Part shown: piece by piece, positions 17,744 through 40,397 of the stretch | How the letters are laid out: each line of letters opens with the position of its first letter | Position numbering within the stretch: position 1 is the stretch's first letter | Assembly (NCBI GenBank): GCA_036337375.1 | Contig: JAYZEI010000204.1 | Coordinates: forward strand, 1-56,219 | From: Planctomycetota bacterium | GTDB lineage: Bacteria; Planctomycetota; Planctomycetia; Pirellulales; UBA7805 | Direction of reading: 5' to 3' | Length of the DNA: 56,219 nucleotides | Notes under the pieces: model-generated | The model's database searches: none | Seen by the model: only the letters and a program-made list of their open reading frames with translations | What the model was told of the DNA's origin: nothing | Made by a program: the position numbers and the translations under genes

Positions 17744-17745
17744 CA

Positions 17746-19822: not shown

Positions 19823-21409
19823 CTAAGACCAACGGCCGCCACTACCATTCTCGTCGCCCTTACCCTCTTGGTCGTTTCCGCTACTGACGGCCGAGATATA
19901 TTGCGACCAACTTTCGAGCTGTTCGATGGTCAGGCTGTTCTCGCGAGTGATTTCGTGCTTCAATTCGGTTTCCGTTCCTTGCACTTTCACCATGATCGTC
20001 AGCCGGCCGTTCTCCAGATATCGAAAACGCACATCGATTGGCGTCTCCGCCGGCAAATCTTGCGGTAGGTCCCGAACGACACACTTGCCAATCTGCGAAC
20101 AGTCCTCTGGAGTGGCGCTTTCACCTTCGACGATTTGGACCAGAATGGACTTCTGCCCGGCTCGTTGCGTCTTGAAAACCCGTCGGGCACTCACCGGCAA
20201 CGGCGTGTTCCGCGGGATCAAGATCGCGTTACGGCGGCGCTGCGTTTTGGGGTCGGTCGCCACGACTCCGAGACTATGGGAATTGACATTCTTGATGTCA
20301 AAAGCGGGCGGCGCACCACCCGCTTTGTCCAGTATCAGCTTGGCTCGCAGCGCCGCACCGTGCGCGACAGCCTCGTCGGCAGATACACTGCGGTCCGGCT
20401 CTTTGCCGGTCAGCCGTTTGAGCATCTCGATCACCATGGGCATCCGCGTCGAGCCACCCACCATCAGCACGAGATCAATCTGGTCCCAGCTCAGACCCGC
20501 GGCCTGCAGCGTTTGTCGCGTGGTGAATTCGGTTCGGTCAAGCAAATCCCGCGTTATTTCCTCAAAGCGTTCTCGGGTCATTTCGATACGCACGGCCTGA
20601 CCGCGATAGTCGCACGTGACGGACACTTTATTGCGGGCAGAAAGTGTCCGCTTGGCATCTTCGCACTCGCGCCAAAGCCGTCCGAAAGTGCAAGGATCCT
20701 CGCGTGGGTCGAGTCCGTGATTTCGAATGAACTCTTCAGCCACAAAATCCACGATCCGCTGATCCCAGTCTCGCCCTCCCAGTAACACGTCGCCGTCGGT
20801 CGCCAGTGCCGTAAAATCCGTCCCGCTAATTTCCATGACGGTAACGTCAAACGTACCACCACCTAGGTCGTACACCAAAATTTTCTTGTCTTCTTTGTCG
20901 TCCCCATCGCCCGTGAGGACTCCCGTGGAATAGCCGAAGGCGATGGCAGCGGCCGTCGGCTCGTTGATGATGTCCAGAACCTCGAAACCCGCCATCTGAC
21001 CGGCGTCTTGCGTGGCCTTTCGCCGCACTTCGTCGAAGTACGCGGGCACCGTAATAACAACTTTATTGATCGGGCCTATCTGCTGCTCGGCGTCATTTTT
21101 CAACTTACGGAGGATGAACGCCTGAATCGCCTCGGGCGGATACTGGCGGCCCTCGAGCAATTTATGAAATGCGCGATGCCCTAAATCGCGCTTGGCACAT
21201 TCGGCCACCGCTTCGGCGTCCGTGGCGACAGCCTTCAACGCTTCCTTGCCGACGACCACCGTGCTTCCTTCGAACAACACGGCGCTGGGCGTCACCAAAT
21301 CGCCTTCCGCATTGACCAACGTCGTGGGGCGGCCCGACTCATCCACATATGCGACCGCCGAATAGGTAGTCCCCAAGTCGATGCCGAAAGGCTTATTATT
21401 TGTTGTCAT
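19823..21409 (-). CDS. Hsp70-family protein. It has a nucleotide-binding domain plus the beta-sandwich substrate-binding domain, but no helical lid (528 aa).
   Basis: [15 protein letters not shown] (phosphate 1), [12 protein letters not shown] (phosphate 2) and GGSTRMPMV (adenosine). Ends after the SBD-beta region. Paralogous to the gene at 36283-38277. Confidence 0.85.
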
Positions 21410-23241: not shown

Positions 23242-23356
23242 GCATCGCTCTGCGACCCAAACCGCCGGCCGGGACCGATTCCTCCTCCTTCGCTGTCCCG
23301 TCGGGTTACCGTGAAAATGCTACAACTCGCGCTGTGCAACCAATAAGGCCACAAAC

Positions 23357-25354
23357 ATGCAACTGATCAAGGTCGCTGCAACGGCAGTCAACCAAACACC
23401 GCTTGCCTGGGAAGCCAACAAGGCAAACATCCTCTCCGCGATCCGCACGGCCCGCGACAACGATGTCAGCATATTGTGTCTTCCTGAACTATGTATCACG
23501 GGTTACGGCTGCGAAGACGCTTTCCACGCGCCGGGTGTTTGCGAAACGGCGCTGTCGGTACTTAAGGAACTTCTCCCGGAAACGCAAAACCTCATTTTAT
23601 CCGTGGGCCTGCCGGTTCAATTTAGCGGCGGGCTATTTAACGCCGCTTGTCTGATCACAGATTGCCGGATCGTTGGATTCGCCGCGAAGCAAAATCTGGC
23701 CGGAGAAGGTATTCACTACGAGCCGCGTTGGTTCAAACCATGGCCCGCTGATACACACGCGGAGTTGGAAGTCGGCGGGCAATCTCATCCGTTAGGCGAT
23801 CTGATTTTCGATTGTGGCGGAGTTTTAATCGGCTTTGAAATCTGCGAAGACGCCTGGGTCGCGGATCGTCCTGGTCGCGACCTGTCGGCGGGCGGCGCAG
23901 ACGTGATTTTGAATCCCAGCGCCAGTCATTTTGCGTTCGGCAAACAAGAAATTCGTCGACGTTTTGTGCTGGAGGGATCGCGGGCGTTCGGCGTCACTTA
24001 TGTTTATGCAAATCTACTGGGGAACGAAGCGGGACGGGCGATCTATGACGGGGGCACCATGATCGCCAGCGGGGGACAGATGCTGCGGGAAGGCCCTCGC
24101 TTTTCGTTCCGCCACGATGTTTTGACGACGGCGATCGTGGATATCGACGCCACCCGATTGCAGCGGACACGGGTCAACAGTTTTCAACCGGACGTGACCG
24201 ACGAACGATCGTCACCGGTGCGGCAGACGTTTCAGTTTCCGAGCATTCCCCCCACCGCCGAGAGTGCCACGGTCGCCGCCTGGGAAAGCGGCGATTCTGT
24301 TAAGGAAGAGGAATTTTCCCGGGCTGTTGCACTTGGCCTGTTCGATTACCTACGTAAGAGCCGTTCCCACGGATTCGTTGTTTCGTTGAGCGGTGGTGCA
24401 GATTCGGCGTCCGTGGCAACGCTGGTCGCGTTGGCCATACGTTTTGCCATCGATGAATTAGGCATTGACGGCCTGCGGCAAAAGCTGGGTTATATTTCAG
24501 AATTGGATGGGCAGCTAACTCCGAACGAGATCACTCGACAACTGCTGACTTGCGTCTATCAGTCGACTCGCAACAGTAGCGATACGACTCGCGACGCCGC
24601 CCGCGCGTTGTCCGCCGCGATAGCAGCCGAGTTTTTCGAATTCGATGTCGACAATATCGTTCAAGAGTACGTTCAAATCGTGGCGACCGGGGTTGGTCGT
24701 GAATTGACCTGGGACCGCGATGACGTGGCGCTGCAAAACATTCAAGCTCGGGCGAGGGCACCGGGAGTGTGGATGGTCGCCAATCTGCGCGGTGCCTTGC
24801 TGCTTTCGACCAGTAACCGCAGCGAGGCGGCTGTCGGCTACGCGACGATGGATGGCGACACCAGCGGAGGGCTATCACCGATCGCCGGCATCGACAAGGC
24901 ATTCCTGCGGCACTGGCTTGTCTGGATGGAGCGGCAGGGTCCCGACGGCGTCGGCCAGGTAGCGGCTTTGGCCGAGGTTAATGCCCTGCAACCGACCGCC
25001 GAACTGCGGCCTTTGTCGGCCGGACAGACCGACGAGGACGATCTCATGCCGTACGAAGTACTCGATGCCATCGAACGCGCGGCCATTCGCGACAAGCATA
25101 TGCCGTTGGATGTGTTTCGTTTGATCGAAGTTCAATTCACTCAGTTTCCACGTGAGCAACTTGGAGTTTGGACGGAAAAATTCTTCCGGCTGTGGACTCG
25201 CAATCAATGGAAGCGAGAGCGCTATGCGCCGTCGTTTCATTTAGACGACGAGAACCTTGACCCCAAAACCTGGTGCCGGTTCCCAATTCTTTCCGGCGGC
25301 TTCGAACGTGAGTTGGCCGAACTAAAAGCCGCATTACTGAAACCTGAAGACTGA
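23357..25354 (+). CDS. nadE: Glutamine-dependent NAD+ synthetase (N-terminal CN-hydrolase domain plus NadE domain)
   Basis: Nitrilase-type domain ([18 protein letters not shown], the catalytic Cys region) followed by the ATP pyrophosphatase motif [16 protein letters not shown]. Length 665 aa. Confidence 0.92.
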
Positions 25355-25367
25355 AACACTCGCGTCA

Positions 25368-26057
25368 ATGTCCTTCACCTACAAATATGCGCATCCAGCC
25401 GTGTCAGTCGATTGTGTCGTTTTTGGGCTCGCCAATGCGGCTTTAAAAGTTTTGTTGATTCAGCGAGATCAACCGCCGTTTGCCGGTCTCTGGGCGTTGC
25501 CTGGCGGATTCGTTGAAATCGACGAGAGCCTGGAAGACGCCGCACGCCGAGAGTTGAAGGAAGAGACAGGCGTTGGTCGAATTTATCTTGAGCAGTTGTA
25601 CACTTTTGGTGATCCAGACCGCGACCCGCGCGAGCGTGTCATCACGGTTGGTTACTTTGCGCTGGTAGCCATGAAAGACTACCGAGTCCGCGCCGCCTCC
25701 GACGCCCGCGCGGCCAATTGGTTCGCCTTGGACTCGATGCCGAAACTTTCGTTCGATCACGCCACGATCATCAACACGGCCCATCAGCGACTAAAAAATA
25801 AAGTCCGCTATCAACCGATTGGTTTCGAGTTATTGCCCAGCAAATTTCCTCTCCGCAGTCTGCAGCAACTATACGAAACGATTCTTGACGAACCGATCGA
25901 CAAGCGCAACTTTCGTAAAAAGATACTCAGCATGGATATCCTCGTCGAATTAGACGAAGTCGAAACCGATGTTGCGCACCGGGCAGCCAGACTCTATCAA
26001 TTCGATAAACGCAAATACAACCGTTTGGTCAACGACGGATTTAGTTTCGAAATCTAA
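25368..26057 (+). CDS. nrtR: Nudix hydrolase-domain protein with C-terminal winged-helix domain (NrtR-type NAD-metabolism regulator or ADP-ribose pyrophosphatase)
   Basis: Nudix box [31 protein letters not shown]-terminal region of about 90 aa is typical of NrtR. The gene sits between nadE and pncA. Confidence 0.7.
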
Positions 26058-26103
26058 CCGTCGAGCAAAACCACCTCGGACGCTTACGGGCATCGGGCAA
26101 CCA

Positions 26104-26724
26104 ATGAAGGCACTAATCCTCGTCGATGTTCAAAATGACTTCGTCTCCGGGGGGGCGCTGGCCGTGCCGGACGGCGACCAAATCGTGCCCATCGCAAACC
26201 GAATCATGCCGCAATTCGATCGTACTATCGCCACCCAAGATTGGCATCCCGCGGATCATGCAAGTTTCGCCAGCCAGCACGAAGGCAAACAAGTAGGCGA
26301 TGTCATCGACCTCGACGGTCTGGACCAAATCCTCTGGCCGGACCACTGTGTCCAGGACACGCCGGGCGCTGATTTCGTCAATGCTGTGAATCTAGCCCGC
26401 ATCGACGCCGTATTCCAAAAGGGTACTGACCGCGCGATCGACAGCTACAGCGGCTTTTTTGACAATGGCCAACGCAGGGCCACAGGTCTGCGCAATTATC
26501 TCGTTGACCAAGAAATTCGCGAAATCTACATCTGCGGACTGGCGACCGACTATTGCGTAAAATACACGGCGCTCGACGCGCGGCGGCTTGGATTTAAAAC
26601 CCATTTAATCTTAGATGCCTGCCGCGGAGTCAATCTGCAGCCGCGTGACGTACAACGAGCACTGGAGCAACTGCGGCAAGCCGGTGTACGGGTTGTGCCG
26701 AGTACCGACATCGCAGCAGTTTAA
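26104..26724 (+). CDS. pncA: Nicotinamidase/pyrazinamidase (isochorismatase family)
   Basis: MKALILVDVQNDF (catalytic Asp), the Zn-binding His region DWHP..DH, catalytic ...K..., and the CGLATDYCV nucleophile Cys motif. Start at the ATG at 26104. Confidence 0.9.
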   Translation: MKALILVDVQNDFVSGGALAVPDGDQIVPIANRIMPQFDRTIATQDWHPADHASFASQHEGKQVGDVIDLDGLDQILWPDHCVQDTPGADFVNAVNLARIDAVFQKGTDRAIDSYSGFFDNGQRRATGLRNYLVDQEIREIYICGLATDYCVKYTALDARRLGFKTHLILDACRGVNLQPRDVQRALEQLRQAGVRVVPSTDIAAV

Positions 26725-26864: not shown

Positions 26865-29800
26865 CTATTCCTCGTCTTTCTCCAACTTTTCGATCAGTTC
26901 CCGATATTGATCCAGCGCGCCGTTGAGACGATCTCTGAGATACTGCATATCTTCCCGCTGGTCTTGAGAAGCCTGCACGAGCGGGGCCAACCAGCCTTGC
27001 ATCAGGTTGAACTGTTCGCGAACGACACCCAGAATGACGCGGGGGACTTTGTTAACCACCTTGATTTCGTGCGGTAGTGACGGGGCATCGCCGGGCTGCC
27101 CAGCCGCGGACGGAGGAGTGGCCGGAGGTTGGCCGACGGCGGGAACCGAGGCTTTTACCGACTCAACCGCCTCGGTTAGCGCCTTGAGTGCATCGGCTGA
27201 GAATGTAGCGTTCAACTCGGCAGGTCTCATTGAACTCTGGCCGACGATTTTTCCCATCTGATCCATACCCTGCGTCATCGTTTCACGGATGGCCGCCAAG
27301 CTGGATTTGAAATCGGCCAAGTGGTCGAGCAACTGCCCCATGTGCTCGACCTCTCCGTCGTTAGAAGTGAGTTGTTGAACGCCGGACGTTAGAGCGTTAC
27401 GGATCGAATCGAGGCCGTCGCTGAACACATCCATCTGTGCGATCACCTGTCCGAATTTGTCACCTTCGTCCAGGCCACGGAATTTTAGGTTCCGCGAAAA
27501 GGTCCTCTTAATCTGCTCCCAACGGTTGTTTTCCTCTTCGCTAAGCATGCCGGTCAATTCTTTAAACTTCAGTAAGTTCGCTTCGGCACCGGTCGTCAGT
27601 GTTTGCGAATCCTGCTCGTAGGCCGAAACGATTAGCGTTTGTAGCTCATCGTCATTCATGATCGGCGAAATTTTTTCGGAAATTCGATTCATGTTCCGGT
27701 AGGAGCCTTGAAGTTTGAACGCCGGTTCGGTGCGGTAATCGTCTTGCATCCCAGCGCTGCGGATATACTCGCGATTGACCGCCAACACCACATCACGAAC
27801 TCGCATCAGTTTGCGCATTGTGGCAACCATCTCCGTCACTTCGTCCATCGAATAGTTGCCGTCCAGTTCGATCGGCTCATCCTCCGCGGCTTCAGCTATC
27901 TTAATGACCGAATAAATGTCATTCGAGCTGCGTGCGGCGAGTTGTGAGAGAGTCGAATTCGACGTGAGCGAATTTTCCAGGTAGCTCATCTCAAACACGT
28001 CGCGGCTATCGCCGATGATCTCGCCCAGATTGTAAGTGTCGGCACGATTGGCCAGCATGTCGGGTATCTGAAATTTCTCGCCGCTTTCGGTGTATGGGTT
28101 ACCGGCCATCACCACGCAAACCTTTCGACCGCGAAGGTCGTGGGTCCGTGTCTTACCTTTGTAGACGCCCTCGATTTTTCGCGTGGCATCGCAGAGTGAA
28201 ATGAACTTCTGCAAAAACTCCGGGTTGCAGTGCTGGATATCGTCGATGTAGAGCATGATGTTATCGCCCATCTCCAGGGCGAGATTTAGCTTTTCGACTT
28301 CCTCGCGGGCAGCAGCATTTGGCGCCTCTTGCGGGTCGAGCGAGGTGACCTGGTGGCCAATCGCCGGACCGTTAATCTTCATGAAAATGATGCCCAGCCG
28401 ATTGGCCATGTATTCCATCAACGTCGTCTTGCCGTAACCAGGCGGCGAGATAAGCAGTAGCAAGCCCATACGATCCGTCCGCTTTTCGTCGCCCGCCGCG
28501 CCAAGCTGTTTGGCAAAGTTGTCGCCAGCTAGCGGCAGATACACCTTGTCGATCAACTTATTGCGGACAAACGAAGTGAGCACGCGGGGGCGAAACTCAT
28601 CGAGCCGCAGTTCTTCACGGGTCTCGTCGACCAACTCTCGCTTGAGATGCGTGTAGTCGTTGTACTTCGGCACAACACTCTCGGCAAACCGCGTTACTCG
28701 CGTCATGAATTCGTTAAAATTCAATCGCTGGTTGCCGTCCCTAATCACGCCGTGTGTACCAAGCAACCCTTTCAGGTCACGCGTAACCGGAGTGTGGATG
28801 ACGCGACTTTCGTCAAATTCTTTTTCGAGCAGCAGCAACGCCACTTCGTCGCGGTATTCGTTCCATTGCGGCTCGTCGTGCTCGTCCAAAAATGCGGCTA
28901 TCCAATCTCGCGCGAGCAGAAAGCTGCTGACCGCATCTTTGCTCACAGCCTCTAGCGACGCTTCGAGTTCGTGCCGATACGCCTTCAATTCCAAATGGTC
29001 GTAAAACGCGCGGTAGATCTCGCTGGCTTCGCGACTGATCACCGGCGGCTCGCAGCTGGCGAGCTGCTGGAAGTCGAATTCTCCGGCCTCATCGGCCAGT
29101 GTCTCATCGAAGCCCGGTCGCTCGTTGCAGAATTGCTTGATCCTAGTTTGTAGTTCGGCAATGCAGTCGGCTTGTGTTTTCGTGTCTGCAAACAGCTTTG
29201 AGATCTTGCCGAATCCCTCCAGCCGCGCGGTAAGCAGCGGTTTGCGAATTTTGTCTGCCCAGGCTCGCCAAAAAATGCCCGCCAGCGCCCGCGACGAAGA
29301 ACTGTACGAAAGCAGGCCGATCGAGGACTTCAGATCGACCAGTGCCCGCAAATAAATGGAGGCGTCGTGGTCGTGAACACCCTTGATGTAACCTTCGCTA
29401 TATCGAGGAACCATGAACTTCTGCACGTGACCCGCGAGTTGTTCGTCGTCGCACACCGCAATGTCCGCCAGCGAGGGCATCTCATCAGTCTGCCCGAGCG
29501 ACTGCAACATCAGGCACGCCAGATACTCCGCCCGGTAGACGGTTTTGTTTTCCGACACGACTTCTTGATCCCACACGTTGCGCGTGGCCAGCAGTCTCTC
29601 GTCGGTGATCGGTTCAAAGAAGTTCGTGCCCGTCAGGTGATAACACAACTCACCGTCGTGCATCACCGTCGTCAGATCGAGCGACTGCACGTTAACGGAG
29701 AACTTGTGTCGGCCAAGCTGGATAATATTTTGACCGTCGACAAAAAGCTCTTGCCGGTCCTTCAGCTGACGGACGGCATCTTCGCGAATTGTCTTCAGCC

Positions 29801-32300
29801 TGCTCTGAATGTCATCGACTTTTACCGAATCGTCGAGGCCGCCCAACTCTTCGGCGATGTCGCGAACCTTCTCAATCATCAGGTCGGACGCGAAATAGCC
29901 GTTGATCTCATCGACCGAGTCCATGCTATCGATCCGCGCCTTGACGCCTTTCAATATTCGCTCGGCAGACTTCATTAACGTGTCGGCGCGACGGTTACGT
30001 GCTTCGACCAGTGACAGCCGCCGGGATTCGAAGGCGTTGTAGATCTCGTCACGCTTTTCACCCAATTCGAGCACGAAATCGTCGAACTCAGCGAAACGGC
30101 CTTCCATTTCCTCGATCTGAATCATCACCTTCGTCAGATACTCTTCACATTTCTCCGGCGAATCACAGACATCGAGGTAGTTGACCACCGCCTGATTGAG
30201 CAGCTTGAGCTGTGAATGAAACTCAGCAGAGCCTTCAGCCGAAGCAAGATTTTGAGACTTCTGTTTCAGTGCCGCGCGGGTCTGGTTTAGTCGTGAGAAA
30301 ATCGTTGAAATGTTGTCGATGATCGAGGTCCGTTGTGTGGCATCCTCGATCTTGAGGTTGCTGACGATCTCAATCAGCATCTCCAACTCGCCGGACGCAG
30401 CGGAGACATTCTCCAAAACGAGTTTTGCATCAGCTACCTTGGTCAGACCGTCGATTTTTCTGTGTTCGGCTTCGACCCGCTGTTCGTACGGGAGGAGTGA
30501 TTCCGGATGGATAAGGAAGTCGACGCAGCGTTGGGCCAAGCTATCCGAGTGATCTTCAACCTGCTTTTCCATCGAGTCAATGGCGTCGGCCGCGGCAAAT
30601 TTCAATTCTCGCAGCGAGATAATTTCACCGCGGAGACGTCGAAGTTCGGCGAGCGATTCGACAAACGCACTGATGTCGCCGAAATCGCGAGTTTTAATGG
30701 CGTTGACCGCGGCAGCTGTTTCGTTGGTGACCTGCGCGACTTGTTGCTCGGTATTGCGGCGAACGCGGACGACTTTTTCAAACTCGTTGATCGCCTTCGA
30801 AGCGGTGTCGCGTACATCGACGAGTATTTCTTTGAGGTTGTACGAGACCTCATCGTCAATCCAAAAATACGAATCGACGATGTCCGTGGATCGTTTGCTC
30901 AGGTCGAGGTACAGATTGGCGTACGTATCCTCTTTGGCGATCAGATTCAACACCTCATGGCATTCGGCCATCGCGCGGACGAGGTCGCGGTTGCCGATTT
31001 TGTACAGCATTGAGTCGGTCTTGGCCGTGGAAGCCTGCTCGGTCGTCAAAAAAGGCGTCTGCCAAACCTGCACGGCGTGATGTTTTTCCGGTTCGTCGTG
31101 ATGGCGAAACGAGATCATCACACCGTCTTCGAACGTCGCAAAGCCGTTACAGACCATCGGTGTGGCGACTTCCTGCGAAATCAGGTTATAGGCCAACAGC
31201 ACGTACGTGCCCGACATACGGTTGAAAAAGACGAACAGAAAATCTTCGCCGTTGCTGGCGCGAAGGCGGTTGGTGAAAACTAGATTTTCCGCCGACAAAT
31301 CGAACGTCTTATACTGACCGCTTTGCAGGTAGTAGCCCTTGGGAAAGATCAGCCCGTGGTCGTCGGGCAGCAGCACGCAGGCATCGGCGATGGCGTCCAT
31401 CCGCCGCGCTTGCTTAATCTTTTCGTTGTAGACAATGTAGCGAAAGTCCTGCTCTTGATACGGCCGAATCTTCAGCGCAATGATGTTACCAATGACGGCG
31501 TAGTAAATCTCGCCATCGTCGAGCGTCTGGTCCACATCGTTGACCGGTTCGGCGTAAATGCCTTCACCACTGTCAGTGTTATTTTCGATTTTGATTGTCA
31601 GATCGCCGCCGACCGTTTCAACAAACAGGCGATCCTCAATCGACACGTGCGGATGTGCGCCAAAGCGGTACATGTCGCGCGTCGCGCGAATCCATTCGAA
31701 TTCGTGCTGGGCCGGGAAACGAAATTCGTGATCGCTGCGGTTGTCGAGGTAGCGTATCGAATCGCCTTCGATCAGCCATTTGAAGATCTTGATATCATCC
31801 ACGCCCGGCCCCACGCGGAACACCATGAACAGGTGGGGGCCGATAACCGAAAATTTTGCAAATCGCGTGTGCTTGTAATACTTGTAGAGGTTGCGAAAGT
31901 CCTCCTCAAACGGACCGCCTCGCAACACGTCGAGCGGCTCTGGATGAAACTCGTCGCCGTCAAAATGATAAACGGCGAAAACGTCTTTGAGCACGGTTTC
32001 CGCGCGAAGACCGACATGCACGTTGAACCCAAAGAGAAACCGCCGTCCGATTTCAACCATATCGCGAGGGACGCAGTTGTTGTCGGTCGTGATCCGCTTG
32101 GTTGACAGCAGCGCGGTTTCGATCGAACCGAAGACCTCTTTGCGGTCATCGTTCAGCCTGTCGAGCCGCGCGCGGAGTTCTGCACCACTGGCGGCGAGCC
32201 GCTTGCGGATGATTTCATAGGTTTGGCCTTCCAGCCCGCCTGGCGCGGCGGTTTCGTCTGGCTGGTCGACCGTATCGTCGATGGCTTCGGCTTGTGCCAT
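26865..32300 (-). CDS. Giant (1811 aa) multidomain protein. It has a beta-rich N-terminal domain, a coiled coil of about 700 aa and an AAA+ (AAA_5/dynein-MoxR-like) ATPase core. No family could be assigned.
   Basis: Walker A LLLISPPGYGKTTLMEY, Walker B IMLYIDDIQH, and a sensor-like VVMAGNPYTESGEKFQIPDMLANRADTYNL, located at about residues 1280-1400. Heptad-rich, charged stretches run from about 480 to 1200. The N-terminal 450 aa are beta-rich and aromatic-rich. Confidence 0.6.
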   Translation of the reverse strand: MAQAEAIDDTVDQPDETAAPGGLEGQTYEIIRKRLAASGAELRARLDRLNDDRKEVFGSIETALLSTKRITTDNNCVPRDMVEIGRRFLFGFNVHVGLRAETVLKDVFAVYHFDGDEFHPEPLDVLRGGPFEEDFRNLYKYYKHTRFAKFSVIGPHLFMVFRVGPGVDDIKIFKWLIEGDSIRYLDNRSDHEFRFPAQHEFEWIRATRDMYRFGAHPHVSIEDRLFVETVGGDLTIKIENNTDSGEGIYAEPVNDVDQTLDDGEIYYAVIGNIIALKIRPYQEQDFRYIVYNEKIKQARRMDAIADACVLLPDDHGLIFPKGYYLQSGQYKTFDLSAENLVFTNRLRASNGEDFLFVFFNRMSGTYVLLAYNLISQEVATPMVCNGFATFEDGVMISFRHHDEPEKHHAVQVWQTPFLTTEQASTAKTDSMLYKIGNRDLVRAMAECHEVLNLIAKEDTYANLYLDLSKRSTDIVDSYFWIDDEVSYNLKEILVDVRDTASKAINEFEKVVRVRRNTEQQVAQVTNETAAAVNAIKTRDFGDISAFVESLAELRRLRGEIISLRELKFAAADAIDSMEKQVEDHSDSLAQRCVDFLIHPESLLPYEQRVEAEHRKIDGLTKVADAKLVLENVSAASGELEMLIEIVSNLKIEDATQRTSIIDNISTIFSRLNQTRAALKQKSQNLASAEGSAEFHSQLKLLNQAVVNYLDVCDSPEKCEEYLTKVMIQIEEMEGRFAEFDDFVLELGEKRDEIYNAFESRRLSLVEARNRRADTLMKSAERILKGVKARIDSMDSVDEINGYFASDLMIEKVRDIAEELGGLDDSVKVDDIQSRLKTIREDAVRQLKDRQELFVDGQNIIQLGRHKFSVNVQSLDLTTVMHDGELCYHLTGTNFFEPITDERLLATRNVWDQEVVSENKTVYRAEYLACLMLQSLGQTDEMPSLADIAVCDDEQLAGHVQKFMVPRYSEGYIKGVHDHDASIYLRALVDLKSSIGLLSYSSSSRALAGIFWRAWADKIRKPLLTARLEGFGKISKLFADTKTQADCIAELQTRIKQFCNERPGFDETLADEAGEFDFQQLASCEPPVISREASEIYRAFYDHLELKAYRHELEASLEAVSKDAVSSFLLARDWIAAFLDEHDEPQWNEYRDEVALLLLEKEFDESRVIHTPVTRDLKGLLGTHGVIRDGNQRLNFNEFMTRVTRFAESVVPKYNDYTHLKRELVDETREELRLDEFRPRVLTSFVRNKLIDKVYLPLAGDNFAKQLGAAGDEKRTDRMGLLLLISPPGYGKTTLMEYMANRLGIIFMKINGPAIGHQVTSLDPQEAPNAAAREEVEKLNLALEMGDNIMLYIDDIQHCNPEFLQKFISLCDATRKIEGVYKGKTRTHDLRGRKVCVVMAGNPYTESGEKFQIPDMLANRADTYNLGEIIGDSRDVFEMSYLENSLTSNSTLSQLAARSSNDIYSVIKIAEAAEDEPIELDGNYSMDEVTEMVATMRKLMRVRDVVLAVNREYIRSAGMQDDYRTEPAFKLQGSYRNMNRISEKISPIMNDDELQTLIVSAYEQDSQTLTTGAEANLLKFKELTGMLSEEENNRWEQIKRTFSRNLKFRGLDEGDKFGQVIAQMDVFSDGLDSIRNALTSGVQQLTSNDGEVEHMGQLLDHLADFKSSLAAIRETMTQGMDQMGKIVGQSSMRPAELNATFSADALKALTEAVESVKASVPAVGQPPATPPSAAGQPGDAPSLPHEIKVVNKVPRVILGVVREQFNLMQGWLAPLVQASQDQREDMQYLRDRLNGALDQYRELIEKLEKDEE

Positions 32301-32449
32301 AGGGTTGTACTACTAATTAAATCGTCCACCGCGCCAACTCGCCGGCTTCGTCCTTCGGCCACGGGTCGTCAGCGGCGGTTGGTTTGGGAGTTCAATCTCG
32401 GGAAACCGTACCGCAAAAAGACAAAAATCCGCATACACTCGGTAGCTTA

Positions 32450-34537
32450 TCATTTCGCCTTGTCTGGTTTACCGATCCGCAATGTGCTCGCCTTGCGATC
32501 GGCCAGACCGGTTTTTTCGGCCATGTCCAGCAATACCTCCAACTCGCTCCGTACGTCGGCCGAATCGGACATGCTGATCATCTTGCCAATCAATGCAGCG
32601 ATGGAAATATTCTTCACGTCTGCAGTGTCCAGGTTGAACATGTCGAAGAATTCGTCCAGCTTCTTTTTGAAGTATTCCGGATCGCCATTGAAGAACGTCT
32701 GTTTGATGTCGTGCAGCACATGGCTGTTGCCGATGTAACGGTCGACAACCTTACCGCCGGTGACCGAGTTCACGATGCGGTCGAAGAATTCCGTATCGCC
32801 GCCGACGATGTCGATTCGTGCGGTCTCCAGGGCCTGGCCGACCACCTTGGCTTGCTCTTCGGCAATGTCCCTCTGGATGCTGATCGCGGCCAGCTCGACG
32901 TCTTTATCCTTATTCAGGCTCAATTTGAATTCTTCGTGCTCCTTGCCGGCCTGATGGAATAACTTCATGGATTTCGCCTTTTCGGTGATGCCATCGGCCT
33001 CGGACTGGAATTTCTCTTTCATCACCGTGGCTTCGGCCAAGCCTTCTTTCTCCAACGATACTGCCTTGGCTTCTTGCACGTTGGCTTCGGCGAATCCTTG
33101 TTTCTCGGAGGCATCTGCCTTGGCCACAATCACGCGGGCATCACCCAAGCCGGGGGCCGCGGTCTCGGCGGTCGTGGCTTCGGCCAACATCTTCTTGGCG
33201 TGGGTCTCTTTTTCGGCCGCTTCGCGATCGGCTTCGGCTTCGATGACAACCTTTTGCGCGATTAGCTCGGCGGATGTCTTTTCGGCTTCGGCCGCTTTGA
33301 CTTGCTTGACCAAGGCCTGTTGGGCTTCTTCCTCAGCCTTGGTGACTTGCACTCGCTTCGACCGGTCGGCGCCGGCGAATTGCTCTGTGTCGATGATCTT
33401 TTGCTCCTCTTCAACCACCTTGCGCTCGACCATCACCCGCTCGCGGATGACGTCTTGCAGGTGTTTGTTTTCTGTCTCAACCACCTTGTCCTTTTCAATT
33501 TCGGCAACAGATACCGTACGCCGCCGTTCGGTGTTTTCCAACTCGCGGTCTTTTTCAACGCGCTCGGTTTCGACCTTCAGAGTCCGTTGTTTGCTCAGGT
33601 CGGCGACGATAATCTGGCGGTCCTTGTTCTCTTCCGCAACCTGGACGGACTCGTCGGTCGATATCCGTGCCTGTTCGGCTTTATTGCGCTGCTCTTGACG
33701 AATTTTTTCCGCCTCGGCCTGCTCGCGGGCAGTGACTGCAGCAATCTCGCGTTGTTGCTTTTGTTCCGCTTCGACACGTTGTCGTTCGAGTTCGTACAGC
33801 GTTTCGTCCCGCTCGACGTTTTGCCGCTTAATCTGCTTTGCTTCCTCAACGTCGAAGTGATTCCGTTTGATGTTTTCGCCGGTCGTCAGCTCGGTGATCT
33901 TCTTGATGCCTTCGGCATCGAGGATGTTGGTCGGATTGAGCATGTCCTTGGGCGTCTGTTCCAGATAGTCGATATGGGCATTTTCGAGCTTGTATCCGTT
34001 TAAATCCTCGCCGATTTGCTTGAGAATCTCATCGCGGAATTTCTCGCGTTCGACATAAAGCTCAACAAAGTCAAACTGCTTGCCGACCGTTTTCAGGGCT
34101 TCAGAAAATTTGGGGTCGAACAACTCCAGGAGCGCACTTTCCTGCGAAGCCCGGTCGCATCCCAGTTGCAGAGCGACTTTGAGCACGTCGTCCGTCTCTT
34201 TGTTGACACGGACGAAGAAGGCCACTTTAATGTCTGCCCGCATATTGTCCTTGCAGATCAGGCCTTCCGCGCCGTGGCGAAAGATCTCAATCCGCTTGAC
34301 CGATATGTCCATGTCTTCCAACCGGTGAATGATTGGAAAAGACAGCATGCCGCCGAAGCTGACTCTCGTGCCGCCTACGCCCGTGCGGACGAACGCTTCG
34401 CCCTGGTGGACCTTGCGATAGAACCGCAGGCCGACGATAAGCAGCCCAAATACGAATATCGCCAGCAGAATAAGGACGACATAAAAGATGCTGGTTTCTG
34501 ATGCTGCGAAGAGGGCGAACATGGTTGTTACTCCCAA
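32450..34537 (-). CDS. Flotillin-like SPFH/band-7 domain protein (YqiK/FloA family) with a long Glu/Ala-rich coiled coil
   Basis: N-terminal TM helix, an SPFH domain (about residues 40-230) and a very long EA-repeat coiled coil (…EAEQKQQREIAAVTAREQAEAEKIRQEQRNKAEQ…). Length 695 aa. The start may instead be at M6, which would remove the overlap with the upstream gene. Confidence 0.8.
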   Translation of the reverse strand: MGVTTMFALFAASETSIFYVVLILLAIFVFGLLIVGLRFYRKVHQGEAFVRTGVGGTRVSFGGMLSFPIIHRLEDMDISVKRIEIFRHGAEGLICKDNMRADIKVAFFVRVNKETDDVLKVALQLGCDRASQESALLELFDPKFSEALKTVGKQFDFVELYVEREKFRDEILKQIGEDLNGYKLENAHIDYLEQTPKDMLNPTNILDAEGIKKITELTTGENIKRNHFDVEEAKQIKRQNVERDETLYELERQRVEAEQKQQREIAAVTAREQAEAEKIRQEQRNKAEQARISTDESVQVAEENKDRQIIVADLSKQRTLKVETERVEKDRELENTERRRTVSVAEIEKDKVVETENKHLQDVIRERVMVERKVVEEEQKIIDTEQFAGADRSKRVQVTKAEEEAQQALVKQVKAAEAEKTSAELIAQKVVIEAEADREAAEKETHAKKMLAEATTAETAAPGLGDARVIVAKADASEKQGFAEANVQEAKAVSLEKEGLAEATVMKEKFQSEADGITEKAKSMKLFHQAGKEHEEFKLSLNKDKDVELAAISIQRDIAEEQAKVVGQALETARIDIVGGDTEFFDRIVNSVTGGKVVDRYIGNSHVLHDIKQTFFNGDPEYFKKKLDEFFDMFNLDTADVKNISIAALIGKMISMSDSADVRSELEVLLDMAEKTGLADRKASTLRIGKPDKAK

Positions 34538-35163
34538 TCATGTTTGGTGACGAGATGAAATCCTCCGGAGAGGGCTTTAACTATTAGGGCGGCGTCTCCC
34601 TGCTTGAGGACTTCGCCGTTTTCAGTGCGAGCATTGACGATGGTCGGTGCCGAATCGGTTGCGACCTCGCAGCGCCCGAATTCTTCGGTAACTTCAAGGC
34701 TTTTGACGACGCAGACTTTTCCCACGAGTGTCGATGTTGGCGGGCGGTGCCGCTTGTAATATTTGACCGGTTCCAGAAGGAACTTTGTAATCGTCAGTGC
34801 AGCAACAAAATTCGGTACCGCCAGCGCCGCGGCAAACCAGGCGTTTCTGTCTGGATTGAACCAATCGTTAACCTGAATGGAAGTGACCCACATCAATAGC
34901 GATACGATGCTGACGTAAAACATGATCGGAACTTCACCCATGTTGAGGAAACCGAGCATGGAAAAACCGCCGGCTCCGCTGATGTCGCCGATGTCGGCGT
35001 CCAGGTCACCATCAATGCCCACATCGGCATCCAGATCAAAATCGAACACGTCGATATTCATCAGTCCGACGATCACCAACATCCAGTACATAACCACCAG
35101 AATCAAAAGTAGCGTGTAGGGCGCATTGACCGCCGAAAACGCCGTTTCATACAACTCGATCAT
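34528..35163 (-). CDS. NfeD/YqiJ-like membrane protein (flotillin-associated; TM helices plus a C-terminal OB-fold-like domain)
   Basis: Several TM helices, an acidic DxD-repeat loop (DFDLDADVGIDGDLDADIGDISGAG) and a C-terminal beta-rich soluble domain. Overlaps the flotillin start by 10 nt. Confidence 0.65.
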   Translation of the reverse strand: MIELYETAFSAVNAPYTLLLILVVMYWMLVIVGLMNIDVFDFDLDADVGIDGDLDADIGDISGAGGFSMLGFLNMGEVPIMFYVSIVSLLMWVTSIQVNDWFNPDRNAWFAAALAVPNFVAALTITKFLLEPVKYYKRHRPPTSTLVGKVCVVKSLEVTEEFGRCEVATDSAPTIVNARTENGEVLKQGDAALIVKALSGGFHLVTKHDWE

Positions 35164-35548
35164 GACACCGTCTTTCTGCGGGCAGAGACCATCGTCTGCC
35201 TACATTTCGAAAATATAGGATATTTTCACCGGTCGCCCAGATAGGGTGGTCAACCGTTTCCCCTGCCGGACAGCGGCCGATGCTGTTCACGACGCCCGCT
35301 GTAAAAATCAGACGCGGATGCGACTCTTCGGCCGACTCTGTCGAAAGCAGCAGTTTGGCCAGTTCCAGGGGTTATACGGTCCTGAAACTCGCCAAAAGGC
35401 GACATCTTCAGGGAACGAGTCATCGGAGATGCCTCGATCGCTCTCACGGCGCCGGTAAGCCGCGCTGTGTTTAGGTATTCGCCGTCGGGTCAGAAATATT
35501 TCCGAAAAAGTGCTAAAATCGGCTTCAAACGCTGACCGTTTTTTCATC

Positions 35549-36232
35549 ATGAACAAATCGCAAATCGACAACATCCTGCTTAAAACGCTCGAAGACTGCC
35601 GCCTTTCTCGCGGCGAAAAGCGTTTGGTGCGCGATATCCTGAGCGAAATCGGTGCCACCGAACACAACCTGGCATTCGTCCGCCATCGCGTTTTCGAAAT
35701 TGCCCGGGGCCAATTCTCCGACGAGGAAAGCCGGGCGGTTATCACTTGGTTGGAAGATGTGGCCAAACTACTGTTGCTCCGCTCGCAGCAAGATCGGCCC
35801 TCGTCCGAAGTGGCTTTCAGCCCGGACGACGACTGTGCGCGGAAGATTGCCAGCAAATTAAAGAACACCGTGGACGAAGTCGACATTTGTGTTTTTACGA
35901 TTACCGACAATCGCATCTCCGAGGCGATTCTCGACATTCATCGCCGCGGCACAAAGGTGCGAATCATCACCGACAACGACAAGTCGGCGGACTTGGGCAG
36001 CGATATCGGCCTGCTGCGCCGGCATGGAGTACCGGTCCGCCAAGATCGCTCCGAATACCACATGCACCACAAATTTGCGGTGTTTGATCGTCAAAGCGTG
36101 CTGACGGGCAGCTACAATTGGACGCGCAGCGCGGCCACCAGAAACGAGGAGAACTTCGTTATAACAGACGACCCGGGATTGGTACGCCGATTCTCCCAGC
36201 AGTTCGAGAAGTTATGGGAGGAACTCGGTTAG
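35549..36232 (+). CDS. Phospholipase D-family single-HKD protein (Nuc-like nuclease/phosphodiesterase) with an N-terminal domain of unknown function
   Basis: HxKxxxxD motif HMHHKFAVFD followed by GSYNWT (GSxN). There is only one HKD copy, so the protein is probably active as a dimer like Nuc. About 100 aa precede the PLD domain. Confidence 0.75.
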   Translation: MNKSQIDNILLKTLEDCRLSRGEKRLVRDILSEIGATEHNLAFVRHRVFEIARGQFSDEESRAVITWLEDVAKLLLLRSQQDRPSSEVAFSPDDDCARKIASKLKNTVDEVDICVFTITDNRISEAILDIHRRGTKVRIITDNDKSADLGSDIGLLRRHGVPVRQDRSEYHMHHKFAVFDRQSVLTGSYNWTRSAATRNEENFVITDDPGLVRRFSQQFEKLWEELG

Positions 36233-36282: not shown

Positions 36283-38277
36283 TCACGGCCCAAAGATTCT
36301 CAGAATATCCGCTTCGGGCTTCAGCCAGCACAAAATGTAATAGCCGGCCGCCAGGCCCAATGCGGCAAACAACACGTGGCCGCAAATCAGTATCGTGCGC
36401 TGAATGCGACGTTGTTTTTGCGCATTGGCCGTCCGTTCGGTGGCGGTCGTCGCCGCCTCTGCGGTGGATTTTATTTCACCTGCCTGCGGCGTTGTCGTTG
36501 AGGCGGCCGCGGTTGCGGCCAGCGTTGGGTTTTCCGCAGTTCCAGAGGCGGTCGCGGCAACGCCGGACTGCGGCTGCGCGGAATCCGGCGAGGCGAGCGT
36601 CGCCGGCTGAGAACTTGGCAGCGGCGGGTCTGGCGACACGGGAGAACTCGCCGCGGAGTTAGCCGCCGGTGTTGGAGTTGAGGGCGAGCTCGTTGCCCCA
36701 CCGGACAACTGCAGTATCTCGGCCAGCACCGTCTCGGTAGTCGGCCCGACGACCTCGCTGCCAATAATCTGGCGCCAGCGCTGCAATTGCGCCGAAGTCA
36801 ATCCATGCTCGCGTTCTAACTCGATACGAACCGTGCGGCCGCTGCCGCTCAATTCGGCCTCGACGTTCAGCCTCCCGTTCGTTCCGTAGGAAAACGTCAC
36901 ATCGATGGGATAGCCTTGGGGAAGGTCCGGCGGCAGGTTGCGGAGGATCGAGCGGCCGATCTGCGAGCACAGCGACGGCTGCGTACTTTCACCCTCAAGC
37001 ACTTGCACCACAATCGACTTTTGTCCCGGCTTTTGCGTGACGAATTGCCTCTTCACTTTCGCGGGCAGTGCCGTATTCTTGGGAATCACAAACATGTTTT
37101 CTCGCTGCAGCGTCCCCTCCGCAATTCCCTGCAGTCCCAAACTGTGTGCGTTCACGTCGGTCACGTTGAATTGCGAGGCGGGCGCGGCGCCCTGCTTGGA
37201 AAGCTGAAAGCCGGCGAACAGCGCCGCGCCGCGCGCGACCGCTTCGTCGGGATTAATCGATCGATCCGGCACAATGCCCGAAAGTTGCTGAATCATGGCC
37301 GACACCATCGGCATGCGCGTGGAACCTCCGACCATTAAAATGCGGGGGATGTCGCGCCAAGAAAGATTCGCCGCTGCCAGCATTTGCCGCGTCGTGAATG
37401 AAGTGCGCTCGAGCAATCCCTCCGTCATTTGCTCGAATTGTTCTCGTGAGACGGGAACATCGACCACGATGCCTTCGTGCTCGACACGAATGCCTACCCG
37501 GTCCCGTTGTGTGAGTGTATGTTTCGCGTCTTCCACGGCAATCATTAATTTGCCGAGCGACATCGGATCCTGACGCAAATCGACCCCGTGACTTTTCTGA
37601 AAGACTTCCGCAGCATAGTCTGCCAGCGCTTCGTCCCAGTCGCGGCCGCCGAGTTGAACGTCGCCGTCGGTTGCCAGCGTACGAATATTTCCCGGTGCGA
37701 GGTGAATGATCGTGACGTCAAATGTGCCGCCGCCTAAGTCGTAAACCAGAACCTTCATCGTCTGCAGCGGATCGCCGGTCGGCGACAAATAACCCAGTTG
37801 CTCACCAAAAGCCAAGGCCGCAGCGGTGGGCTCGTTGACAATGTCGAGCACATCAAGCCCGGCTATTTCGCCGGCGTCCGCCGTCGCCTTGCGGCGAGGT
37901 TCATCGAAGTAGGCCGGTACGGTAATGACCGCCTTGAAGTTCGACCCAATGGACGCCTGAATGTCCTCCTTCAGCCTCCGCAAAATGCACGCCTGGACAA
38001 CCTCGGGCGGCATTTGCCGGCCATTAATTGCTCGACTGTAAAACTCGCTGCCCATGTCGCGCTTGGCACATTCGGCGACGCGATGCGGTTCCAGGCCTGC
38101 GACTTGTTTTGCAGCCTTGCCGACGACAACTTCGTTTTCGTCAAAAAACACCACGCTCGGCGTAAGTAACTGTCCTTCGGTATTGCGGACCACCGACGAC
38201 CGGCCGGACTCGTCCAGACAGGCCACGGCGGAATAGGTCGTTCCCAAGTCGATGCCAACAGCGCGGGGTTCAGTCAT
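36283..38277 (-). CDS. Hsp70-family paralog. It has a nucleotide-binding domain, the beta-sandwich substrate-binding domain, a Pro/Ser/Thr/Ala-rich linker and a C-terminal TM anchor.
   Basis: [27 protein letters not shown] and GGSTRMPMV motifs. The linker is low-complexity (PTPAANSAASSPVSPDPPLPSSQPATLASPDSAQPQSG...). The C-terminal hydrophobic helix is ILICGHVLFAALGLAAGYYILCWL. Start moved to the ATG at 38277 (MTEPRAVGIDLG). Confidence 0.8.
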   Translation of the reverse strand: MTEPRAVGIDLGTTYSAVACLDESGRSSVVRNTEGQLLTPSVVFFDENEVVVGKAAKQVAGLEPHRVAECAKRDMGSEFYSRAINGRQMPPEVVQACILRRLKEDIQASIGSNFKAVITVPAYFDEPRRKATADAGEIAGLDVLDIVNEPTAAALAFGEQLGYLSPTGDPLQTMKVLVYDLGGGTFDVTIIHLAPGNIRTLATDGDVQLGGRDWDEALADYAAEVFQKSHGVDLRQDPMSLGKLMIAVEDAKHTLTQRDRVGIRVEHEGIVVDVPVSREQFEQMTEGLLERTSFTTRQMLAAANLSWRDIPRILMVGGSTRMPMVSAMIQQLSGIVPDRSINPDEAVARGAALFAGFQLSKQGAAPASQFNVTDVNAHSLGLQGIAEGTLQRENMFVIPKNTALPAKVKRQFVTQKPGQKSIVVQVLEGESTQPSLCSQIGRSILRNLPPDLPQGYPIDVTFSYGTNGRLNVEAELSGSGRTVRIELEREHGLTSAQLQRWRQIIGSEVVGPTTETVLAEILQLSGGATSSPSTPTPAANSAASSPVSPDPPLPSSQPATLASPDSAQPQSGVAATASGTAENPTLAATAAASTTTPQAGEIKSTAEAATTATERTANAQKQRRIQRTILICGHVLFAALGLAAGYYILCWLKPEADILRIFGP

Positions 38278-38396
38278 GCGCCCAATGCTAACAGCAGCAA
38301 GACGTCGCCTCAAGCGTTCACCGGCTGGAGCACGGCAGCCCGCACCGATCCCCAATCCCCGGCCCCCAATCCCCCGGTTGCAAAGCAACCGAGCTG

Positions 38397-40397
38397 CTAT
38401 GCCGGTTCGCGGGTGACGCGGCAACCGGGCAGAGACTCCAGCAAGACACGGCCGTACGGTTTGGTTTGAATTCGTGGATCGAGGATCACCACGATGCCGG
38501 AATCGGTCTGCGTACGGATCAAACGGCCAAACCCCTGCTTCAATTTTAGTGCCGCTTCAGGCAGTTGGTAATCGACAAACGGATTTCCGCCGGCCGCACG
38601 AATGGCCTCCAACCGCGCTTCGTGTAGCGGTTCGTCCGGAACGCGAAACGGCAGCTTGGTAATGATCACATTTGCCAGCGCATCGCCGGGCACATCGACG
38701 CCTTGCCAAAAACTATCGGTCCCCAACAGAACCGAACGGGGATTGTCCTTAAAGCGATCGAGCATCTGCGAGCGGGGCAGACCGTCGGCTTGGGAGAGCA
38801 GGGCAATGTTTTTTTCGGCTAGCCAGGGAGTCAACTCGGCCGCGACGCGGCGCATCAGCTCATAACTTGTGAACAAAACGAATGCGTGCCCGTCCGTTCG
38901 GTCGACATATCGCTGAACAAGCGGCGCAAGCATACTTTCGAAGTGTTCGCGGTCGTCTGTGGGCTCGGCGATTCCCTGCGGCAGAATCAGTTCGACCTGC
39001 CTTTCGAAATCAAACGGGCTGCCAAGCTGCAACTGCTCGGCTTGCGTCAGACCGATGCGCGATTGGAAGAAATCGAACGATCGACGGCCGCCCACGGCCA
39101 ACGTTGCGCTGGTCATGACGACGGTCGGAACCTTCTCAAAAAGTTCCGCCCGCAACGTCGGGCCCACGTCGACCGGCGCGGCGGCCAGCGTAATCCGCGG
39201 CAGCCCGCCTCGCAAAAACCTCGATTCAATCCAATAAACGTGGCCGTCGTCCTGCTGCATCCGCCATTGTTCGATCGAACCGGCGAGAACCTGCAGCCGC
39301 TCGGCCGCCGACATGAAGTCCTGGCGCTGGACTTCGTCGGAAAGTTTGCCGCCGGCCTTCCGCACTTTTTGCGACAGTGCCAACAGCGACGGGCTGAGTG
39401 CATTTGACACCGGTTCGGCATCGTCCACCCGTCCGTTTTCCCGCGCGTGACTGATCAGATACGTGTACACGTCCTGAAAAAATGTTTCTGCGTCGTAGCG
39501 GCACTGCTGTACCGCTTTTTCGGCCTCGGCGGCTTCGTGATGAACCAGCAGTCCTTTATTTGTGCGGTCGTTGTAAAGCTTGTTCAGAGTGTAATCGATC
39601 GCGCCGGACGTGATTTTCATTCCCAGATGATCGCCGGCCACGCTTTCCATCGTGTGCGCTTCGTCAAATATGACCGTGTCATAATCGGGCAAAAGACTAA
39701 CACCCACGCGGCGCAGTGCCAGATCACTGAAAAACAGTGCGTGGTTGACGATCAGGATCTGGGCATTGCGGACGCGGCGACGCGCTCGATAGTAAAAGCA
39801 CTTTTCGTAAGTCGGACAGTTGCGGCCCATGCAATTGCCGCTATCGCTGGCGATCTCGTCCCAGACATTTCTGCCGGGACGATTTTTCAGGTCCGCCCGC
39901 GAACCGTCGGCCGTCTGTTTCGCCCACGCGGCGAGTTGCCGCAGTTGCCGGAACTCGGTTTCGTCATGAAACAGTGAACCGGCTCGTACCTGGGCCGCGT
40001 GCAGGCGACGCAGACTTAGATAGTTGCCACGGCCCTTGGCCAGCACCGCTGTGAATTCGCGGGGGATAATACTGTTAAGAAACGGAATATCTTTATCGAG
40101 CAACTGCTCTTGCAAGCTGATCGTGTGCGTCGAGATCAAAATCCGCCTGGCACGATCGTTGGACTCCGTACCGGCCGCTGCGGAGCCCGGATCGGTTACC
40201 GCCAGAATCGCCGGGACCAGATAGGCAAAACTTTTGCCGACGCCGGTACCAGCCTCAACGATCAGATGTTGTTTTTGCTCGATCGCGCGCGCGACGGCGG
40301 CGGCCATTTCGAGTTGCTGAGGCCGCTGCTCGTATCCGTCCAACCGCGCGGCAATGCGCCCTTCGGAACCGAGAATCTCGGCTGTGGTTATCGGCAT
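38397..40397 (-). CDS. dinG: DinG/XPD (Rad3)-family ATP-dependent DNA helicase with Fe-S cluster domain
   Basis: Walker A EAGTGVGKSFAYLVPA. Four cysteines for the Fe-S cluster (CMGRNCPTYEKCFYY). DEAH-like VIFDEAH. C-terminal helicase motifs ...TSATL...GRLIR. Length 666 aa. Confidence 0.85.
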   Translation of the reverse strand: MPITTAEILGSEGRIAARLDGYEQRPQQLEMAAAVARAIEQKQHLIVEAGTGVGKSFAYLVPAILAVTDPGSAAAGTESNDRARRILISTHTISLQEQLLDKDIPFLNSIIPREFTAVLAKGRGNYLSLRRLHAAQVRAGSLFHDETEFRQLRQLAAWAKQTADGSRADLKNRPGRNVWDEIASDSGNCMGRNCPTYEKCFYYRARRRVRNAQILIVNHALFFSDLALRRVGVSLLPDYDTVIFDEAHTMESVAGDHLGMKITSGAIDYTLNKLYNDRTNKGLLVHHEAAEAEKAVQQCRYDAETFFQDVYTYLISHARENGRVDDAEPVSNALSPSLLALSQKVRKAGGKLSDEVQRQDFMSAAERLQVLAGSIEQWRMQQDDGHVYWIESRFLRGGLPRITLAAAPVDVGPTLRAELFEKVPTVVMTSATLAVGGRRSFDFFQSRIGLTQAEQLQLGSPFDFERQVELILPQGIAEPTDDREHFESMLAPLVQRYVDRTDGHAFVLFTSYELMRRVAAELTPWLAEKNIALLSQADGLPRSQMLDRFKDNPRSVLLGTDSFWQGVDVPGDALANVIITKLPFRVPDEPLHEARLEAIRAAGGNPFVDYQLPEAALKLKQGFGRLIRTQTDSGIVVILDPRIQTKPYGRVLLESLPGCRVTREPA

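Follow-up and report, generated by a model that had tools for sequence, protein, structure and literature searches.

A conserved unit of a YqiJ-like membrane protein, a flotillin and a giant AAA+ protein in a Planctomycetota bacterium

The 56,219-nucleotide (nt) contig JAYZEI010000204.1 of a Planctomycetota bacterium (hereafter 'the window', meaning this whole stretch of DNA) carries on its minus strand three consecutive genes that encode a YqiJ/NfeD-like membrane protein, a flotillin, and a giant AAA+ protein of 1811 amino acids (aa). Comparison with related loci leaves us highly confident that these genes form a widespread and vertically conserved three-gene unit, of which the window carries the Planctomycetota copy; judged from its genomic context, the giant protein is very probably coupled functionally to the flotillin pair. 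Taken as a whole, and with moderate confidence, we explain the locus best as an abbreviated PspA-linked band-7/flotillin operon whose giant protein would remodel a flotillin/NfeD scaffold.

Bacterial flotillins and PspA have been much studied without, to our knowledge, any energy-consuming partner that controls their assembly having come to light. Because the giant protein is locked to the flotillin/NfeD pair in hundreds of species and repeatedly joined to PspA, it is an obvious candidate for such a partner, and one that is easily overlooked under its database label, 'DNA repair ATPase'. The value of the locus lies in correcting this label, in a first domain-by-domain structural description of the protein, and in pointing to tractable hosts.

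The arrangement itself, which a first-pass annotation of the window had taken to be undescribed, was published in 2024, and the family of the giant protein is already in Pfam. Ravi et al. (2024) (mSystems, PMC11237479; preprint 2020) reported operons that combine CesT/Tir-PspA with genes for a band-7/flotillin protein, an AAA+ protein with a propeller and coiled coils, and a YqiJ/YuaF protein with three transmembrane segments (3TM). They described a shorter form devoid of PspA, remarked on an HKD phospholipase D (PLD) in some operons, and proposed a role in sub-membrane dynamics for this PspA-linked, membrane-stress module.

Synteny of the three genes

When one genome of each GTDB species was scanned, the giant family turned up in at least 582 species, and 80 of the loci were kept for comparison, among them representatives of Planctomycetota, Verrucomicrobiota, Kiritimatiellota, Bacteroidota, Desulfobacterota and Clostridia. 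A plasmid collection added members from Pseudomonas, Proteus, Halomonas, Vibrio, Photobacterium, Streptomyces, Nonomuraea and Deinococcus. The family thus extends to Pseudomonadota, Actinomycetota and Deinococcota as well. Synteny was counted over the 65 loci, drawn from seven or more phyla, in which 2.5 kb or more of sequence precedes the giant gene. In 62 of these 65 the gene immediately upstream, on the same strand, encodes a full-length orthologue of the flotillin (41-65% identical). A YqiJ-like open reading frame (ORF) precedes the flotillin gene in 56 loci. The first-pass annotation had suspected a membrane-microdomain ATPase and proposed asking whether homologues of the giant protein sit next to an SPFH/NfeD pair; these counts support the tie to flotillin/NfeD well. 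Given adjacency in 62 of 65 loci, we regard the giant and flotillin genes as a conserved functional unit, and chance adjacency is ruled out by the same figure.

The trio is retained in members just 27-35% identical (L083, with proteins of 213, 615 and 1606 aa; L084, with 187, 659 and 1787 aa), as well as in Pseudomonas fluorescens pQBR103, Streptomyces and Deinococcus. Across loci, the identities of the giant protein and of the flotillin to their window counterparts co-vary (Pearson r = 0.70, n = 66). The distance between the two genes varies among loci, from 23 nt up to 2.4 kb. Clustering of the neighbouring ORFs revealed no conserved fourth gene between them, nor any conserved ORF in the long spacers (L014, L024, L037, L047 and other Bacteroidota).

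Gene calls and layout of the locus

The three consecutive minus-strand ORFs were confirmed in the window, as was the spacer of about 150 bp reported previously, whose length is 149 nt:

34528..35163, minus strand: gene for the YqiJ/YuaF-type (short NfeD-like) membrane protein, 211 aa, called from its ORF, hydropathy, hhalign and orthologues
32450..34522, minus strand: flotillin gene (YqiK-type SPFH protein), 690 aa from the ATG at 34522
32301..32449, minus strand: flotillin-giant spacer, 149 nt, in which no terminator-like site was found on the coding strand
26865..32300, minus strand: gene for the giant DUF3686-family AAA+ protein, 1811 aa, with zero hydrophobic segments

The YqiJ-like and flotillin genes had been said to overlap by 10 nt. 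Their tight coupling holds with either start codon, whereas the overlap arises from taking the longest flotillin ORF (32450-34537, 695 aa), which begins with a TTG at 34537. The ATG at 34522 lies 5 nt past the stop codon of the YqiJ-like gene and is preceded by GGGAG, and it is the start called, for a product of 690 aa, in a public metagenome-assembled genome that encodes an identical flotillin (GCA_035092365.1). The G+C content is uniform over the three-gene region, and a scan for promoters and terminators gave counts at or near the shuffled expectation and was thus uninformative.

The YqiJ-like protein and the flotillin

Both membrane proteins are, by sequence comparison, divergent members of the YqiJ and YqiK types, in agreement with the yqiJK-type pair recognized in the first-pass annotation. 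Hydropathy shows three hydrophobic segments in the YqiJ-like protein, which also has an acidic loop rich in D residues and, at its C-terminus, an OB-like tail rich in beta structure. It matches the Pfam YqiJ_N model weakly (E 0.008); among 26 orthologues, 10 match YqiJ_N (E <= 0.1; best 3.6e-8) and three match NfeD. A profile of the protein aligned by hhalign with Escherichia coli K-12 YqiJ over the full length (probability 96.9%, E 1.7e-10), and searches of the PDB with the single sequence and with the profile returned nothing significant.

The flotillin begins with a hydrophobic anchor, continues with an SPFH domain and an EA-rich coil, and ends in a conserved C-terminal region. It matches Pfam Band_7/SPFH with an E value of 5.7e-12, a model that only four of 29 orthologues reach at E <= 0.01, and gave no match to the Flot model of Pfam (PF15975). 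Its profile aligned to E. coli K-12 YqiK over 402 columns (probability 100%, E 3.9e-42, 31% identity). The homology to YqiK extends through the coil, which, though it had been singled out as unusual, is of the EA-rich kind normal for flotillins, the window protein being about 140 aa longer than YqiK (690 vs 553 aa). Against the PDB, the single sequence found no match and the profile only a weak coil match to QmcA. Hydropathy indicates one N-terminal hydrophobic segment followed by R/K residues, and a cytoplasmic topology is predicted from this order of anchor and basic residues.

Family membership of the giant protein

The giant protein, previously deemed unclassifiable, belongs to a family that is named in databases and uncharacterised. 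Its residues 41-479 match positions 1-448 of the 448 of PF12458 (E 3.8e-186; 619 bits against a cut-off of 25), that is DUF3686, which Pfam describes as "ATPase involved in DNA repair", and residues 601-683 match PF25472 (DUF7902; E 3.7e-27). Of the candidates scored, more than 4700 were homologues at E <= 1e-10. Full-length Planctomycetota proteins are the closest of these, and the names given, where there are any, are 'DNA repair ATPase', 'MoxR-like ATPase' or 'hypothetical protein'. When phmmer was run exhaustively with the N-terminal domain as query, it recovered 745 clusters at the 50% identity level (E <= 0.001), the full-length members of which span 1600-2036 aa. The window protein is co-linear with its homologues (coverage 99-100%), 30 sequences aligning over their full length. 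A full-length match to a characterised family, which would have spoken against the microdomain idea, was thus not encountered.

The remaining Pfam and NCBIfam matches are faint: a weak single AAA match at residues 1281-1361 (PF00004, 27.7 bits against a cut-off of 21.2), a score for AAA_5 below the cut-off (20.5 bits vs 22), and in NCBIfam only sub-threshold P-loop matches. No VWA/MIDAS domain was found in the protein with Pfam. Hydropathy detects no hydrophobic segment, and a soluble ATPase acting at a membrane scaffold is therefore a reasonable reading.

That the giant protein might instead be a DNA-repair ATPase whose place beside a flotillin has nothing to do with its function is suggested by the way in which Pfam describes PF12458 and NCBI names the product, by a weak similarity to RuvB confined to the surroundings of Walker A (19-22 bits against model cut-offs of 282-299), and by the LexA-family annotation of a divergent regulator in Bacteroidota. 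However, no DNA-binding, nuclease or ABC-type head domain was detected in the protein with Pfam or NCBIfam, its PDB matches, with single sequences and profiles alike, are confined to about 40 residues around the P-loop/Walker A, and its structural neighbours are chaperone-type AAA+ proteins of the MoxR/dynein kind rather than RuvB, SMC or RecN. Moreover, its conserved partners are membrane proteins and PspA, and our literature searches found no paper backing the name. We consider this explanation highly improbable, and the 'DNA repair ATPase' assigned by the NCBI Prokaryotic Genome Annotation Pipeline (PGAP) is probably misleading.

Domain organization of the giant protein

From sequence analysis and structure models, the giant protein is predicted to be soluble; its spectrin-like bundles, about 800 residues in all, bear a divergent propeller at the tip and a single MoxR/dynein-like AAA+ module at the other end. 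The domains map onto the window as follows (residues of the protein in brackets):

30864..32180, minus strand: N-terminal helix and divergent beta-propeller-like domain, PF12458/DUF3686 (41-479)
29745..31013, minus strand: spectrin-like helical bundles (430-852), including PF25472/DUF7902 (601-683; nt 30252-30500)
28830..29726, minus strand: conserved middle module (859-1157), a five-strand beta unit and a helical bundle
27753..28559, minus strand: single AAA+ module (1248-1516)
28422..28445, minus strand: Walker A, PPGYGKTT (1286-1293)
28230..28253, minus strand: Walker B, LYIDDIQH (1350-1357)
26868..27752, minus strand: C-terminal helical region (1517-1811)

AlphaFold2 models were computed from 35-sequence alignments, with mean predicted local distance difference test (pLDDT) scores of 85.8 for residues 1-860 and 83.1 for residues 800-1811. 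They predict the following elements:

Residues 25-57: helix
Residues 63-414: about 27 beta strands
Residues 430-852: helical bundles
Residues 859-897: five-strand beta unit
Residues 923-1157: helical bundle
Residues 1195-1231: long helix
Residues 1281-1516: AAA+ alpha/beta core and lid; a beta-hairpin precedes sensor 1
Residues up to 1811: helices, the final ~200 residues at low confidence

The fold of the AAA+ module is nearest to MoxR, dynein and midasin, which bears out the dynein/MoxR-type core proposed previously, and the motifs then listed were found where claimed: PPGYGKTT at residue 1286, LYIDDIQH at 1350, GNP at 1400 and DMLANR at 1414. The last two lie within GNPYT (1400-1404) and PDMLANR (1413-1419), which follow the beta-hairpin that precedes sensor 1. 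All four motifs are invariant in the 30 family members aligned, at 31-60% identity, and with them the Walker A Lys, Walker B, the sensor-1 Asn and a candidate Arg finger, R1419. The invariant residues of this alignment cluster in the AAA+ and post-AAA region; those of the middle module include G863, E917, R923, G974, H976 and D979. The C-terminal region is conserved to about residue 1600 (QGSYR at 1531-1535), its last ~200 residues being variable and modelled with low confidence. Walker B carries DD (residues 1353-1354, window 28239-28244) in place of the usual DE, in 30 of 30 aligned members.

The same features bear on another view of the protein, as a mostly static spectrin-like tether or scaffold whose propeller would join flotillin platforms to some other structure or to a cargo, while the AAA+ module would serve as a nucleotide-controlled switch and not as a motor. 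Such a part would suit the ~400 residues that match spectrin and plectin repeats, the family-wide DD of Walker B, and the presence of a single AAA+ module in 1811 residues. Against it, the catalytic motifs are invariant at 31-60% identity, and no part of the protein is better conserved than the AAA+/post-AAA region, which favours an active enzyme. We regard a static tether as unlikely, though less so than the other alternatives.

Link to PspA and the wider operon

PspA/IM30 adjoins the three-gene module in 17 Bacteroidota loci. In 15 of the 17, a divergent helix-turn-helix (HTH) regulator of the LexA family is followed by genes for a CesT/YbjN-like protein, PspA/IM30, the YqiJ-like protein, the flotillin and the giant protein, in this order. 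Hymenobacter DG25B likewise has CesT/YbjN-like and PspA genes directly upstream of the trio, a divergent regulator annotated as LexA-family, and a last operon gene whose product is 60% identical to the N-terminal domain of the window giant protein. Its gene string is the same as that of the neighbourhood of ANH61663.1 in Dokdonia donghaensis, given as an example in Table S3 of PMC11237479. More generally, the giant proteins of Flavobacteriia and Hymenobacter with this operon architecture are 50-60% identical to that of the window. Genes for band-7 proteins adjoining pspA have also been reported by Popp et al. (2022).

A second form occurs on pQBR103, the megaplasmid of P. fluorescens SBW25, where the trio closes a long operon (locus L086, 85401-100852) that runs PspA, rhomboid, DUF2491, DUF350, DUF1190, glutathionylspermidine synthase, small protein, SPFH protein and 'DNA repair ATPase'. 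This operon ties the module to the polyamine-associated PspA operons of the literature and, pQBR103 being a well-studied megaplasmid, offers a tractable experimental system. As the window has no CesT/Tir-PspA pair, its locus represents the abbreviated form of the operon.

Neighbouring genes

Divergent from the operon lies a PLD-like gene:

35510..36232, plus strand: PLD-like gene with HKD motif (Pfam PLDc_2, E 2.9e-31)

Orthologues 45-52% identical are found within about 2 kb of the module in four further loci (L019, L047, L070 and L071), so that the gene accompanies the module in only about five of 85 loci. This recurrence agrees with the remark of Ravi et al. on an HKD hydrolase in some operons, and the gene is possibly an occasional accessory rather than a core part of the module.

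The PLD-like gene, adjoining the module in the window and in those four loci, could alternatively point to an anti-phage or conflict system in which the giant protein senses infection and the membrane proteins or the HKD/PLD enzyme act as effector. Some copies of the module on megaplasmids would fit, as would an order of similarity among the top loci that departs from taxonomy (Desulfobacterales and Bacteroidota 53-55% identical to the window, other Planctomycetota 47-57%). However, PADLOC assigned none of the three proteins to a defence family, a scan of 2.9 million viral contigs brought up no relative, and the PLD gene is absent from most loci. The flanking genes are of housekeeping type and vary by locus, save for clade-specific extensions such as the HTH/CesT-like/PspA genes of Bacteroidota, and the core trio remains 50-60% identical across phyla, whereas defence genes typically diversify rapidly. 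A defensive role is accordingly improbable.

Other neighbours were recorded in their own right. The giant genes found with no adjacent flotillin stand among unrelated genes (DUF2147, Uma2, TonB_C, DUF559, DUF389), with no YqiJ-like gene upstream. In the window, the giant gene borders at its 3' end on a NAD-salvage cluster on the plus strand (21757-26724; NAPRTase, NAD synthetase, an NrtR-like Nudix protein and nicotinamidase/isochorismatase). The very distant L083 has genes for Nudix, nucleotidyltransferase-like, isochorismatase and NAPRTase proteins a few kb downstream of its module (16772-20821), and in L019 a 53% identical Nudix protein gene (17405-18064) adjoins the module; this proximity may be due to chance. 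The longest isochorismatase/nicotinamidase ORF (start at 25969) shares 89 nt with the end of the Nudix gene (25969-26057), and since the public call is shorter (206 aa), the true start is probably further downstream than 25969. Finally, the window encodes two Hsp70-like paralogues on its minus strand (19823-21409 and 36283-38424). The second, just past the PLD gene, is a protein of 713 aa with a long low-complexity C-terminal extension and a terminal hydrophobic segment; a gene for an Hsp70-like protein (36% identical) lies downstream of the module in L044.

Proposed role

By analogy with SPFH assemblies whose structures have been solved, QmcA-YbbJ and HflK/C among them, the flotillin would oligomerise with the YqiJ-like protein into a cup or cage on the inner membrane, facing the cytoplasm. 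The AAA+ modules of the giant protein may assemble into a ring, whose propeller-tipped arms would engage this flotillin scaffold and, where it is present, PspA. ATP turnover could then assemble, disassemble or reshape the scaffold during membrane stress or remodelling, in a manner functionally analogous to the action of FtsH within HflK/C or of Vps4 on ESCRT-III. We put forward this ATP-driven remodelling as the likeliest role, but tentatively, and it may well not hold. Still bolder, and in our judgement rather unlikely, is a version in which the giant protein is the missing ATP-driven remodeller of membrane-scaffold polymers in bacteria: as a MoxR-like hexamer, its ring bearing six spectrin-like arms with propellers at their tips, it would build up or strip flotillin cages, ESCRT-III-like PspA polymers, or both. 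If true, this would make it the functional counterpart of Vps4; a 2025 review (PMC7619361) states that a Vps4-like ATPase for PspA appears to be absent in bacteria.

Several points weigh against a remodelling operon of this kind. The invariant DD of Walker B implies that ATP hydrolysis may be slow, regulatory or regulated. MoxR-type ATPases usually act with a VWA/MIDAS partner, and none was found among the conserved neighbours. The giant gene has no adjacent flotillin gene in three to six loci (L018, L025 and L038, and probably also L010, L020 and L082, which are short contigs). The case for co-transcription consists of the 149-nt spacer and its want of a terminator-like site, and tblastn with Bacteroidota proteins detected neither PspA nor a CesT-like protein in the 56-kb window. 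Our literature searches found no paper mentioning DUF3686 or PF12458, none of relevance that joined 'DNA repair ATPase' or MoxR with flotillin, and no experimental work on any member of the giant family.

Comparison with known systems

The closest described system is the operon of Ravi et al., with which the window shares the three core genes, their order and the HKD/PLD neighbour: a band-7/flotillin gene, a 3TM YqiJ/YuaF gene just upstream of it, and a downstream gene for a propeller/coiled-coil AAA+ protein. The full form of that operon includes CesT/Tir-PspA, a pair that the window lacks, and their study was purely computational, the AAA+ protein being given there without Pfam assignment, structure or experiment. 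The yqiJ-yqiK genes of E. coli and yuaF-floT of Bacillus subtilis are a homologous pair with the same order and tight translational coupling as in the window. However, in E. coli yqiK is followed by sibD/ibsD and not by a giant gene, whereas in the window the giant gene lies downstream of the flotillin gene.

HflK/C-FtsH would be alike in mechanism only, as an SPFH scaffold coupled genetically, and by proposal physically, to a ring-forming AAA+ ATPase at the inner membrane. FtsH, in contrast, is a membrane-anchored AAA protease of the classical clade, while the giant protein is predicted to be soluble and MoxR-like and has no protease domain; likewise, HflK/C faces the periplasm, whereas the SPFH domain of the window flotillin is predicted to be cytoplasmic. 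To the MoxR family (CbbQ, NorQ, RavA), midasin and dynein the giant protein is only 11-15% identical. Midasin and dynein concatenate six AAA+ modules where it has one, and it departs from the MoxR family in having neither a VWA/MIDAS domain nor such a partner and in scoring below the AAA_5 cut-off. Vps4 belongs to another AAA+ clade, the giant protein has no MIT domain, and its invariant partner is the flotillin, the link to PspA being optional; what likens it to the Vps4/ESCRT-III system is the genomic association of its AAA+ module with PspA, a member of the ESCRT-III superfamily, in Bacteroidota and on pQBR103.

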